Of a stretch of DNA of 64,000 nucleotides, positions 57,672-62,112 are shown piece after piece. This stretch comes from Sedimentisphaerales bacterium. Lineage in GTDB: Bacteria > Planctomycetota > Phycisphaerae > Sedimentisphaerales > Anaerobacaceae. The stretch is taken from positions 3,040,001-3,104,000 of the forward strand of contig OY970194.1 in assembly GCA_963708075.1 (NCBI GenBank), given 5' to 3'. Under the pieces are notes generated by a model. It worked only from the letters and a program-made list of their open reading frames with translations. It was not told the DNA's origin and made no database searches. Position 1 is the first letter of the stretch; each line of letters begins with the position of its first letter. The position numbers were made by a program, and so were the translations under genes.

Positions 57672-58254
57672 CTACATTGGACGCGGTCTGCCGCGATAAT
57701 CGGCGGTCTTCACCAGTCCCTCGCGGACCCCCTCAACCAGCCATTGCTCACCGCTGGGACTGGTGAAAACATACCAATCCACTTCCCCCGAGAACCGAAC
57801 GCAGCCCCCCCTGCTTCACCGGCACGACGGCCGGCGCAGTTGCCACGCCCGCAAGATCCTTGGCGACCACGGCGGTCTCAGGTCCCTGCATCGGGGCTTT
57901 GGAATCCCCCCAGACAGCCACAAAATGAAGGGCCAGACCAAGAATCAATCCGGCGGCCAGACCAACCGCAAATCGCATGCGGCCGTCGATCCGGAGAATC
58001 CGCCGGTAAGTGGACCTTGTATGCTGCTGCCAGGCCCGCTCGAAAATCTGGTCTGCAGAGGCCCCCCCAGAAACCTCTGCAGCCACTGCCTGATAGCTCT
58101 GTTGACGAAGACTGCGCAACTGCTCCAGCAACTCCCTTGCCTGGCTGTTGGCATCGAGTTCTCGTTCCAGGATCTTCCGCTCGGCCGGCGAGATCTCGCC
58201 ATCGACGAGCTTGCCGATCAGTATTTCCAGCCAATCATTGGTCTCATTCATCAT
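57672..58254 (-). CDS. Putative anti-sigma factor (frameshift ~57790)
   Basis: LVDGEISPAERKILE N-terminus, single TM; C-terminus VDWYVFTSPSGEQWLVEG in the adjacent frame. Confidence 0.65.
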
Positions 58255-58825
58255 TCAAGCACCTGCTATCGGTCTTGCCTATCACCTGATTCTGCACCAT
58301 TCGTCTGGCCCGCACGAGGCGGATCTGCATGGTCGTCATCGGCACCTCCAGCACCTCGGCCATCTCGGCGTAGGTCAGCTCGCCCGTGTGCGCCAGCACG
58401 AATACTTCGCGATACTTCTCGGGCAAGGTCCTGACCGCATCGAGAATCCGGCCGCATAACTCGCTCTTCTCGACCTCGTCCAGAGGGTCCCGAACATATC
58501 CATCCAGCTTGAGCGAAATCATGCTTTGATCCACCTGCATATTCCTGGGCGTCCGTCGCCGGTAGTGCTTCAGGACCTCCCGGCGGGCCACCGCAGCCAG
58601 CCAGGCCCGAAACCGCTCCGGCTCACGCAGCGTGTGAATCCGCGTAATCACGCGAAGGCACACCTCCTGAAGCACGTCATCGAGGTCCTGTGCATCGGCC
58701 AGCACGCTGTATACCAGGCCCTTGAGCCAGCCCCAGTTGCGCTTCAGGAGCAACTGCAGGGCTTCTTTGTCGCCCCTTTGGGCCGCACAGGCCAGTGCCG
58801 ATTCGTTTTGAGCCGTTACTTCCAT
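58244..58825 (-). CDS. ECF RNA polymerase sigma factor
   Basis: DDVLQEV, FRAWLAAVAR, LPEKYREVFVL, LTYAEMAEVL, RLVRAR. Confidence 0.9.
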   Translation of the reverse strand: MEVTAQNESALACAAQRGDKEALQLLLKRNWGWLKGLVYSVLADAQDLDDVLQEVCLRVITRIHTLREPERFRAWLAAVARREVLKHYRRRTPRNMQVDQSMISLKLDGYVRDPLDEVEKSELCGRILDAVRTLPEKYREVFVLAHTGELTYAEMAEVLEVPMTTMQIRLVRARRMVQNQVIGKTDSRCLNDE

Positions 58826-59033
58826 CAATGGCCTCTTTACAGATATAGATGCCGGGGAGAAACCCTCTCATACATCTTTCCCGACATTTTTTTAACGGGG
58901 GACCATGACTGGTCGCACAATTGCATTATCGGCCGAAGAGCCCGGCCCGATTACCCGTGAATTGACGCCAGACCCGTAAACAGGGCCATGTCCCCGCTCG
59001 CGCAGGCACGCCTTAGCCGGGTGCCCGCCCAAA

Positions 59034-59514
59034 TTGGCTTTGTTTCGCACGCCGGGTCGGCTACCATGTAGCCCAGCCGCCCTCGGCTGGGATCACCCCC
59101 GGGGGCGGGGGTGCTACTTGCCACTTCACACTTCAGACTTGAAAACCTCCTCCTCCAAATTGGCTTTGTTTCGCATCATCGCACAATCAACCACAACCCC
59201 TTTTCTGCAAATGACTTAGCATTAAGGCATCCGGTCAACATTGGCTTTGTTTCGCAAAGTCATCCACGCGATCTCCTCCGGCCTACGGCCTTCTCCCAGC
59301 AGATTGGCTTTGTTTCGCACACCCGCACTTGCCACCGAAGGTGTGTCGCAGCGCTCTTCTGCTCTTCACTCCGCACTCCGCAATCCCCAATCCGCAATCG
59401 CCGCCCACGGGCCCCGGAATTGGCTTTGTTTCGCACACCCGGACCTTCCACGCAGCCTGTCGTATTCGCCTTCCCCAAATGCCCCATCGCTCCCAAGTTT
59501 GGCTTTGTTTCGCA
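59034..59514 (+). repeat. Array of six identical 16-bp direct repeats with variable spacers
   Basis: TTGGCTTTGTTTCGCA at 59034, 59160, 59241, 59304, 59420, 59499. Confidence 0.9.
59068..59117. repeat. GTAG-REP doublet inside the first array spacer
   Basis: GTAGCCCAGCCGCCCTCGGCTGGG...CACCCCCGGGGGCGGGGGTGCTAC. Confidence 0.65.
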
Positions 59515-59851
59515 CAAAACATCGTGGCGAGGCCACAGGGCCGAGCGACGAGGGAACACCTCCCCGGCCCCACCCTCCGTGGAGAACCTACGTCATCGCG
59601 GGCAAAAAGGTGAGATTTCCTTCCCTCCTCTTGTACGAGCATCTACCTTCAGTCACGAAACTCGCCTACTGGAAACGGCAATAGCTGGCCTGCACCTGAT
59701 CGCATAAGTCTTTATTTGTCAACTATTAACCCTTGTGGCGCAAGGACTTACGAGCACCCTGTTTGGACCAAAAATCCGTGTGTCGCTGGTTCAGGTCCAC
59801 GTGTATCGCTGATGCGCCCGCAAGAAAACTCGGCCAGATTGGTTTTTATTG

Positions 59852-59897
59852 TTGACTCCTACGACAACATGTCGTATATCAACGACAAGCTATCGTA
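59852..59897 (+). promoter_or_regulatory. Promoter with tandem BlaI-type operator dyads
   Basis: TTGACT -35; TACGAC-N5-GTCGTA (59860-59876) and AACGAC-N5-ATCGTA (59881-59897), directly upstream of the BlaI-family gene. Confidence 0.7.
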
Positions 59898-59926
59898 GGT
59901 CAACGTGAATACTGAGGACCAGGCAA

Positions 59927-60316
59927 GTGAAATCACAACCACTGGCTAATGCGGAACTGGCTGTCATGGAGTTGCTGTGGCAGAACGATCACCTGACGGC
60001 CCGCGACATACGCGAGCGACTCTACCATGATGCGACCAAGGCCCAGCATGGAACCGTTCAGAGACTGCTGCAGCGTCTGGAAGACAAAGGCTATGTCAGG
60101 CGCGACCGCAGCCTGTTCGTCCATCTGTTCTCGGCTGCGGTCTCCCGCCAAGCCTATGCGGGACAACAACTGGAGTCCCTCGCAGACAAGCTCACCGCGG
60201 GATCCTTCGCACCGCTGATCACGCATCTTATCGAGCACAAGAAGATCTCCTGGCGCGAGATCGACAAGATCAAGGCCCTCCTGGATGGGAAGGAAGTCGA
60301 GGCGGACCCAAAATGA
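59927..60316 (+). CDS. BlaI/MecI/CopY family transcriptional repressor
   Basis: AELAVMELLW, TVQRLLQRLEDKGYV, GSFAPLITHL. Confidence 0.9.
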   Translation: MKSQPLANAELAVMELLWQNDHLTARDIRERLYHDATKAQHGTVQRLLQRLEDKGYVRRDRSLFVHLFSAAVSRQAYAGQQLESLADKLTAGSFAPLITHLIEHKKISWREIDKIKALLDGKEVEADPK

Positions 60317-62112
60317 TAGACCTCCTTCTCCAGATGGGCTTGAGCAATGCCTGTTTCGCGTTGGCCTTGGCGGTCGTGGCTGTGGTGGCAGGGAGAAGGG
60401 CCACGCGCCCGCATTTGGCTCACCTGCTCTGGTTGCTGGTCTTCGTCAAACTGGTGACGCCGCCGCTGGTGACGATTCCCGTGGGTCTATTCCCACAGCA
60501 GCCGGACCATGCAGCCGCGAATGCGGGTGCGTTCCGTCCCAACCAGCTGTCTGCGGTGGCGGAAACGGCTCTGGAGTCCGCCCTGCTGTCCAGCATCGCA
60601 CCCATGTGGAATCGGGCCAAGTCATGCATAGCTACCCTCTGGTTGCTGGGGAGCGTGGTTGTGTTTGTCTGGTCGATGGCCAGAGTATGGCGCTTCGGGC
60701 GCCTGTTGGCCGCAGAATCTGACGTCGCGTCACAGGAATTGCAGGAGAAGGCAGACAGGATGGCCCGGCAGCTCGGGCTGGCCACCGCCCCGACGATCCG
60801 GACGACCGCGGCGTGTCTGTCACCCCTGGTCTGGTGGACGGGGGGACAGGTACGGATTGTCATTCCCAGGGCGTTGCTCGACGAAAGGAGAGTTCAGGAC
60901 TGGCAGTGGATTGTGGCCCACGAGCTGGCGCATGTCCGGCGGCGCGACTATCTCGTCCGCTGGGTCGAGTGGCTGGCGTGCGTCTGTTTCTGGTGGAACC
61001 CCGTGGTGTGGTGGGCCCAGCGTAATCTGCGGGCCCTGGAGGAGATCTGTTGTGACGACCTGGTGCTCTCCACCTTGCACCCGAAACCGAAGTCCTATGC
61101 GGACTCCCTGTTAGCTGCCGTGGAGTTTCTTGCCCGACCGGCTGTGCGTGCCCCGGCGATGGCAAGTGAGATCAACAGCGGTGGAAGCCTTGAAAGAAGA
61201 TTCAGAATGATCGTATCCGGCAAGTCCAGCCAAGCGAGCTCTCGTTGGTTGCGGATGTGTGTGCTGGCGTGCGCCGTGGCCGTGCTGCCCCTGGGCCTGG
61301 CCTCGGCGCAGAACTATGAGTCCGTCGGCAAGCGGCTCCAGAGATCCGTAAAGAGAGGCGAGATCACGCAACAGCAGGCTGACGCGATGATGGGCGTCCT
61401 AAAGAAGGAGACCGACAGGAAGGACCAGGACACGGACAAGGCGACGGCCCATCTGATGAAGCTGAAGAAGGATCTCGGTGCCGCGGTCGAGGCCGGCAAG
61501 ATCAGTAAGGAAGACGCCGCCAAGAAGTACGAGGTCGCCGCGAAGGGCCTGAAGGAGAAGCCGGCTGCCCAGAGGGAGGACAGTACCGACCTGCAGGCCG
61601 CCTGGAAGAAGCTGCAGGACAAGGTTAAGGCGGGCGAGCTGACCAAAGAACAGGCCCTCGCCAAGATGTCGTCGCTCAAAGAGGCGGCGGCCAAGAAAGA
61701 CCTCCAGAAGAAGCCGGCCGCCAAGGGGCAGGGCTATATTGACCTGGACGCCGCCTGGAAGAAGCTGCAGGCCAAGGTTCAGGCGGGCGAGTTGACTCAG
61801 GAGCAGGCCCAAGCTCAAATGGCCGCCCTCAAGAAGGAGAATGCCCGGAAGGACCAGGATGCGGACAAAACGATGACCGCTCCGATGAAGATGAAGAAGG
61901 ACCTGGGCTCAGCAGTCGAGGCCGGCAAGATGGGCAGGGAAAACGCCCCCAAGAAGGACATCAAGAAGAAGCCGGCGACCCAGCCTGATTACGACGCCAT
62001 CGGCAGAGATCTCAAGGCGGCCGTGCAGGCAGGCAAGCTGACGAAGGAGGAAGCCAAGGCGAAGTGGGAGGCGCTTAAGAAAGAGGCCGCCCCAGACAAA
62101 GGTGAGAATTAG
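60313..62112 (+). CDS. M56 family metallopeptidase (BlaR1/MecR1-like) with C-terminal helical repeats
   Basis: AHELAHVRRRD, WWNPVVWW, EICCD, LERRFRMI; six AVxAGxxTxExA-like repeats. Confidence 0.9.
   Translation: MIDLLLQMGLSNACFALALAVVAVVAGRRATRPHLAHLLWLLVFVKLVTPPLVTIPVGLFPQQPDHAAANAGAFRPNQLSAVAETALESALLSSIAPMWNRAKSCIATLWLLGSVVVFVWSMARVWRFGRLLAAESDVASQELQEKADRMARQLGLATAPTIRTTAACLSPLVWWTGGQVRIVIPRALLDERRVQDWQWIVAHELAHVRRRDYLVRWVEWLACVCFWWNPVVWWAQRNLRALEEICCDDLVLSTLHPKPKSYADSLLAAVEFLARPAVRAPAMASEINSGGSLERRFRMIVSGKSSQASSRWLRMCVLACAVAVLPLGLASAQNYESVGKRLQRSVKRGEITQQQADAMMGVLKKETDRKDQDTDKATAHLMKLKKDLGAAVEAGKISKEDAAKKYEVAAKGLKEKPAAQREDSTDLQAAWKKLQDKVKAGELTKEQALAKMSSLKEAAAKKDLQKKPAAKGQGYIDLDAAWKKLQAKVQAGELTQEQAQAQMAALKKENARKDQDADKTMTAPMKMKKDLGSAVEAGKMGRENAPKKDIKKKPATQPDYDAIGRDLKAAVQAGKLTKEEAKAKWEALKKEAAPDKGEN

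Follow-up and report, generated by a model that had tools for sequence, protein, structure and literature searches.

Introduction

Nucleotide repeats that lie inside bacterial reading frames are known from Rickettsia, where palindromic elements are inserted in frame into genes, and PE_PGRS-type families combine a conserved N-terminal domain with polymorphic repetitive tails. CRISPR repeats, for their part, measure roughly 23-50 bp and are set apart by spacers of regular length. The closest described counterparts of the array reported here are the NIME arrays of Neisseria, dRS3 repeats separated by RS elements (PMC1797815, PMC11893778). As given there, dRS3 is a 20-bp sequence, ATTCCC-N8-GGGAAT, with 6-bp terminal inverted repeats (PMC1797815), and the Neisseria repeat is read by trans-acting proteins, namely a phage recombinase and the ssDNA nuclease Ssn (PMC1797815, PMC11893778). 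A second system is ccaF1-CcsR1-4 of Rhodobacter sphaeroides and its relatives ('cuckoo' RNA), in which a DUF1127 protein of 71 aa accompanies the CcsR motif CCUCCUCCC, which occupies the hairpin loops of distinct sRNAs released from a 3' UTR (PMC8034643).

The family analysed here resembles NIME in that a short repeat of near-invariant sequence forms long intergenic arrays with many families of modules of ~20-200 bp, in the differing unit number of syntenic arrays between relatives, in the insertion of other repeats and IS, and in a copy number that varies by orders of magnitude between related species. Unlike NIME as portrayed there, the motif is asymmetric and unrelated in sequence to dRS3, and the arrays are strictly one-directional and tied to a multi-copy gene whose intact copies translate the array as a C-terminal tail. 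With ccaF1-CcsR, it shares a small gene from a large family that long lacked an explanation, the gene being followed by same-strand tandem units with a conserved short motif, and loci that duplicate and reorganise. However, the family protein has neither DUF1127 nor another known domain, the units are translated in intact copies, and the fillers are unconstrained. The likeness to Rickettsia palindromic elements and PE_PGRS families lies in a nucleotide repeat inside ORFs and in a conserved N-terminal domain with a variable repetitive tail in many paralogues; here, in contrast, two frames read one and the same nucleotide motif, which also survives under constraint in non-coding descendants. No description of this gene-plus-array family was found in a literature search whose wording was not exhaustive.

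Layout of the six-copy array

The window, the whole 64-kb stretch of DNA that was analysed, contains six exact copies of the 16-mer TTGGCTTTGTTTCGCA, all on the + strand, at positions 59034-59514 (chance expectation, 0.41). None of 100 shuffled window sequences reached six copies, and no seventh copy with up to 3 mismatches is present in the window. The spacers are 110, 65, 47, 100 and 63 nt long, and an A precedes five of the six copies. The array occupies a gap of 1098 bp between an ECF sigma gene (Pfam Sigma70_r2/r4_2) and a repressor gene (Penicillinase_R), and no reading frame spans it on either strand; on the minus strand, the three frames contain 2, 5 and 6 stops. In all of these points, the mismatch-free copies in one orientation, the spacer lengths and the preceding A, the gap of ~1.1 kb and the lack of a single frame through the array, the original prediction was borne out by recounting. 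The minus strand is the gene strand of the family described below, and on it each unit reads as TGCGAAACAAAGCCAA followed by a G-rich module. The features of the locus are as follows.

58244..58828, - strand: ECF sigma factor gene (context; Sigma70_r2/r4_2), 205 bp beyond the array and on the family's gene strand
58974..59033, + strand: boundary module preceding copy one; its orthologue bounds the array of the sister species G021 (48/62 identical)
59034-49, 59160-75, 59241-56, 59304-19, 59420-35 and 59499-514, + strand: six-copy array, with five modules between the exact 16-mers
59050..59159, + strand: module 1, a 52-bp GTAG-type hairpin repeat (59066-59117) and a heptamer-run segment; relatives in 9 other arrays
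59320..59419, + strand: module 4, a heptamer run and a short GC hairpin; relatives in 16 other arrays, G021 orthologue 80/101 identical
59726..59762, - strand: weak remnant of the 5' box of the head (profile A positions 16-52, E=8.9e-4), the remaining head being absent
59927..60316, + strand: BlaI-type repressor gene (context; Penicillinase_R)
60313-62112: BlaR1-type M56 peptidase gene (context), after the BlaI-type gene

The family gene is absent from this locus, which is gene-less like 31 other arrays. A comparison with Rfam 15 gave three weak matches, all far under the gathering score; a tfoR-like match at 59513-59636 (E 0.0086, under gathering) was treated as chance. A scan of 58700-60000 returned no promoter-like sites; the one terminator-like hairpin in it (59537-59523, minus strand) was weak and within chance.

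A genome-wide family of mosaic arrays

The genome (G000) is a single contig of 7.5 Mb, and it carries 285 copies of the 16-mer if as many as 2 mismatches are allowed: 126 are perfect, 105 differ at one position and 54 at two. The reversed 16-mer, searched as a control, has 0 matches. The copies fall into 41 clusters of 2-12 copies and 13 singletons, and the orientation is uniform inside each cluster. Alignment of the copies gave a conserved core of ~19 nt, AAA + 16-mer + C, with sharp edges and with flanks that are C-rich on the + strand of the target.

The spacers had originally been regarded as unique and mutually unrelated sequences, which was not borne out. Genome-wide, they measure 17-359 nt (n=231); 115 belong to one similarity component, several smaller families exist, and 85 are singletons at the threshold used. 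In a spacer-only BLAST (E<=1e-3), target spacer 1 is related to 9 other arrays and spacer 4 to 16, and spacers 2, 3 and 5 have no relatives at that threshold. When compared at the region level together with their flanking motifs, spacers 2, 3 and 5 also show 66-85% identity to further arrays of this genome. Since the target spacers recur in other arrays, they are mosaic modules rather than unique inserts, and what had been proposed as a self-standing new repeat-spacer system is one of 41 arrays. Tandem units of 87 nt also occur among the arrays. A phage or plasmid origin of the spacers, which the original prediction had suggested checking, found no backing, as a BLAST of the target array against phage and plasmid collections gave no match, and no terminus of a known IS or MITE family was found for the motif.

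The gene context of the arrays was determined with a simple, purpose-written gene caller and is accordingly crude. Arrays occupy gaps of 517-3584 bp and lie close to the gene at the motif's 5' side, which points away from the array in 30 of the 41 cases. The 40 neighbouring proteins scanned against Pfam are unrelated housekeeping proteins, including SHMT, EF-G, BipA, ClpX and a PBP, with no neighbour common to the arrays among them. Nor do the arrays show a replication-strand bias (25/41, p=0.21).

The associated gene and its promoter-like head

In nine arrays, a gene encoded on the strand opposite the motif lies at the motif's 3' end and runs into the array; the copies are 54-93% identical, and one is frameshifted. 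The conserved part of the encoded protein is ~170 aa and is predicted to be all-helical (pLDDT 82). The protein had no match in Pfam, NCBIfam, PHROGs or PADLOC; even at E<=1, Pfam gave one chance-level hit only. Structural searches were likewise uninformative: the best E was 0.32 with a PDB sequence profile and 0.47 with Foldseek, VIA-align reached a best Z of 8.1 with generic helical hairpins only, and the ESM Atlas yielded unnamed clusters only. In databases the family is large, with 736 relatives of near length and 286 longer ones, all unnamed and the family thus entirely unannotated. Among the 120 matches listed per search, none of the relatives carries a Pfam domain, and the longer ones are without a fused known domain.

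The gene is preceded by a conserved stretch of ~220-280 nt, referred to here as the head, which contains a TATAAT-like box, a heptamer-rich 5'UTR and an RBS. A profile search of the genome with this head gave 23 strong matches (E<=6e-14), all at the same end of an array and reading inward. Nine of these heads are followed by the gene and 14 are not; the remaining 18 of the 41 arrays, the target included, are head-less. At least six head-only arrays and the G021 array share one deletion junction, at which a few leading codons abut a motif copy, in differing frames. By this common junction, the head-only form is a non-coding, gene-less derivative that spread.

The heptamer runs of the 5'UTR (AAATCAA and AAATCGT types) stand directly before the RBS, for example at L015:1860-1900, and weak copies are scattered in the genome.

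Intact arrays as translated tails

In seven of eight gene-bearing arrays, one stop-free frame on the gene strand extends across 247-700 nt of array, and the other two frames contain 1-9 stops; the open frames that include the gene measure 264-530 aa. In most gene-less arrays, none of the three gene-strand frames is free of stops. Over 38 arrays, the gene strand holds 364 stops vs 512+-21 in dinucleotide shuffles, and the other strand 289 vs 297+-17. Spacings divisible by 3 make up 22/37 in gene-bearing, 41/94 in head-only and 38/100 in bare arrays. The database homologues present the same picture: their tails have a median length of 129 aa, the motif peptide is present in 139 of the 158 tails that reach 60 aa, and a common C-terminal peptide follows the last AKQSQ in 18 of 204. 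On the evidence of these open frames, the array of intact members is an in-frame C-terminal tail of the gene.

Within the open frames, the motif is read 35 times as AKQSQ, 8 times as CETKP and never in the third phase; the counts for 166 database homologues are 191, 137 and 2. The motif is invariant at the third codon positions of both frames. Given this reading in two frames and the invariant third positions, it is the nucleotide string that is conserved and not a peptide, and the protein does not explain the motif. The original prediction had allowed for a conserved translated protein as the explanation of the motif. Of this, translation stands, as an in-frame tail, for intact members; it does not account for the motif, and the target encodes nothing of the kind.

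Collectively, the comparisons identify the target array as a gene-less, head-less and frame-broken member of this mosaic family. It is likely, from the same sequence evidence, to be the leftover of the repetitive translated tail of a multi-copy gene, after loss of gene, promoter and frame.

In the otherwise avoided third phase, the motif and its flank would read R-N-K-A-N-Y-G-P (arrays at G000 3676846 and 862912; L015:1800-1855), which resembles the conserved N-terminal box of the protein, R-R-N-A-x-K-S-T-G-P. In head-only arrays, the first motif lies roughly where that box would fall. The likeness may be due to chance, or it may reflect homology behind the deletion of the N-domain.

Relatives and the orthologous locus

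Within the genus, all 23 further genomes contain the motif, in numbers from 1 to 535; in a sample of 300 other genomes from across the phylum, only 6 have it. The range from 1 to 535 copies among the species of one genus constitutes a natural experiment on repeat expansion. The gene is present in 22 of 24 genus genomes, and its copy number tracks that of the motif (Spearman 0.64, among genomes that are kin and not independent). In five of five sister loci fetched, 1-2 motif copies follow the gene. In G000, one full unit separates two genes that adjoin each other in 8 relatives, indicating that whole units insert; the junctions and the target-site duplication of this unit were not placeable, as the flanks were too diverged.

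In G021, the ECF sigma gene and the boundary module of the target recur beside an array of seven motif copies that is likewise gene-less. The G021 array keeps a full head (E=4.7e-34), of which the target has only a 37-nt remnant (E=8.9e-4), and exactly two extra whole units are present in G000. The blaI gene is not beside the array in G021, and the blaI orthologue of G022 has no motif within 1.5 kb upstream.

Constraint and concerted change of the motif

Between the orthologous arrays of G000 and G021, the motifs are identical at 46 of 48 positions vs 161 of 210 (77%) for the modules (Fisher p=0.002; one locus, three motif pairs), and the orthologous modules have diverged by 21-30%. Fourfold-degenerate sites of two neighbouring genes are identical at 64/84 and 38/63 (60-76%). 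Because the modules are about as similar as fourfold sites and the motifs nearly unchanged, the modules of this single locus appear to evolve near-neutrally and the motif to be constrained, in arrays that encode nothing. Together with the sharp edges of the core, this upholds the earlier proposal that the motif is under selection while the spacers vary.

The motif also changes in concert. One position is occupied by G in all tails detected in G014, G001, G010, G004 and G017, and by A in nearly all tails of G000, G013, G019, G012, G016 and G018. In a tree of the N-domain, the groups of A- and G-type species are not separated and 3 changes are needed, with one A-type gene inside a G-type clade at 99/99 support; the AU test rejected a single clade (p=0.004). 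The motif variant thus follows the host genome and not the gene lineage.

Exact motif copies account for 43% in gene-bearing, 51% in head-only and 42% in bare arrays (chi2 p=0.67). Judged by these frequencies, upkeep of the motif is independent of promoter, gene and coding.

For bacterial repeats, this is an unusual trio: a motif that is invariant though translated in two frames, that is constrained in non-coding descendants amid neutral fillers, and whose variant switches in concert across old within-genome paralogues. The combination points to a sequence-specific reader or correction process.

Discussion

Near-invariant as it is, unlike the filler, the motif is likely to be read by some factor. 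We tentatively favour, at somewhat less than an even chance, a NIME-like mosaic array in which the motif is a candidate site of recognition and exchange at the DNA level. A genome-specific trans-acting factor, conceivably a recombinase, a nuclease or the family's own protein, would read the motif on DNA; whole units would be gained, lost and exchanged between arrays at the motif; and this reading would both drive array turnover and keep the motif invariant, with the target array having no coding role. Reading at the DNA level is preferred because all rearrangement footprints end at the motif, among them the two-unit difference between G000 and G021, the tandem 87-nt units, the deletion junction in six head-only arrays and G021, and the unit inserted between two otherwise adjacent genes, and because upkeep is independent of promoter, gene and coding. 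Several points weigh against such a site. The motif is without the inverted symmetry of most recombinase sites, and RecA-type recombination usually needs identity longer than 16 nt. Turnover alone leaves the per-site conservation of old orthologous copies unexplained and would call for a fitness-relevant reader or short-patch correction. An enzyme or binder of the motif was not found, and the family protein has neither a match to a named family nor an informative fold match. Finally, in 23 of 41 arrays the units are strictly co-oriented with a head that bears a promoter, and this, like the spread of the gene-less derivative of promoter and array, fits a role as RNA at least equally.

That RNA role, the main alternative, which we regard as possible, if doubtful, would make the arrays many-sited platforms: gene-strand transcripts would display the A-rich UGCGAAACAAAGCCAAU between structured, G-rich filler to an RNA-binding reader, possibly the basic N-terminal domain of the family, which would serve sequestration, processing or autoregulation. 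Its nearest known analogue would be a gene with 3' sRNAs, as in ccaF1-CcsR (PMC8034643). The conserved head, with its RBS and TATAAT-like box, leads into 23 of 41 arrays and is never reversed, and the non-coding head-plus-array derivative stands at no fewer than six loci and also in the G021 array orthologous to the target. Predicted pairing of the GAAACAAA core on the gene strand is 0.11-0.40 vs 0.64 outside the motif, with no such dip on the opposite strand (predicted, 0.58 vs 0.59), although the unpaired state of the core is largely an effect of composition. The constrained motif amid neutral fillers and the genome-specific variant would also suit an RNA reader. On the other hand, the motif is equally kept in the 18 head-less arrays, the target among them, and its translation in intact genes is awkward if protein and RNA are to form a stable complex there. 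An Hfq sponge of the CrcZ type is unlikely, since no match to the Hfq family was found in the single-contig genome (92.8% complete by marker genes), where control genomes matched as expected. Somewhat more doubtful is a self-recognising element, in which the product of the multi-copy gene would read the 16-19-nt motif repeated in its own tail, protein and motif would co-evolve per genome, and the arrays would serve as multivalent DNA or RNA platforms. If true, this would be a new protein-repeat partnership, with a logic like that of RAYT-REP or ParB-parS and unrelated to both.

We consider it unlikely that the array is a functionless relic, a decaying pseudogene tail whose motif is kept uniform by concerted evolution (inter-array conversion and turnover) and has no reader. 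The target, with neither gene nor head and with stops in all frames, would be just such a tail; the modules drift at a neutral rate, the motif variants are homogenised within genomes, and IS and hairpin-repeat insertions are tolerated. Yet modules diverged by 21-30% lie beside motifs identical at 46 of 48 positions, homologous recombination would hardly yield conversion tracts confined to 16 nt where the fillers on either side are unrelated, and bare arrays are not more decayed than gene-bearing ones. The position of the array between two divergent regulatory operons, and of its G021 orthologue upstream of the same sigma gene, might suggest six binding sites for a regulator of the ECF sigma or blaI-blaR genes. 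This is very improbable, as arrays of the same motif flank 40 unrelated genes, blaI has its own palindromic operator-like sites (~59850-59900), and blaI is accompanied by the motif neither in G021, where it is not beside the array, nor within 1.5 kb in G022. Hardly credible at all are sigma-54-type promoters on the + strand, by likeness to -24 GG and -12 GC, or a CRISPR-like array acting in trans. The GG and GC dinucleotides are roughly ordered and the locus has a repeat-spacer look, but the motif is GG-N9-GC, and in the sigma-54 consensus GG and GC are separated by N10; moreover, conservation covers the whole T-rich middle, and the arrays are coding tails of the opposite strand. As the original prediction had already held, the array is not CRISPR: the core is 16-19 nt, spacers measure 17-359 nt and are shared among arrays, the target array matched neither the phage nor the plasmid collections, and a Pfam scan of 40+3 flanking proteins detected no Cas-type protein.

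The DNA-level reading and its alternatives aside, the family bears on genome annotation. Gene callers run these genes on through the arrays, and an orphan array like the target is to be annotated neither as CRISPR nor as a lone regulatory RNA.

Other elements in and around the arrays

Two near-palindromes of the TACGACA...TGTCGTA type lie at 59850-59900, just 5' of blaI, and are likely the repressor's own operators; an Rfam miRNA match near these positions was weak and was considered noise. Also 5' of blaI, a stretch of ~110 bp (59684-59794) overlaps the weak head-box remnant. It recurs at 73-83% identity at 2.10 Mb and 4.09-4.18 Mb of the genome and in several relatives; as none of its other sites adjoins an array, it was rejected as an array-linked conserved element.

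Two solitary exact 16-mers, at G000 1222685 and 6234456, stand apart from any array, in short intergenic gaps of 234 and 120 bp. One array is split into two pieces by a DDE transposase gene (DDE_Tnp_1 + DDE_Tnp_1_assoc; L028:945-2123, G000 about 4779100-4780280), indicating that arrays tolerate IS insertion, and a DUF772/DDE transposase neighbours another array (L017:3434-4777). A palindromic repeat of ~95 bp is lodged between gene and array at L015:1205-1301 (G000 2509118-2509214). It occupies dozens to hundreds of genome sites in both orientations and constitutes a separate, abundant repeat family. The GTAG-type hairpin repeat of module 1 (59066-59117) has many copies of 85-96% identity in most genomes of the genus, also outside arrays. 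Since it is also frequent in genomes with few 16-mers, it appears to be an independent REP-like element that landed in arrays.
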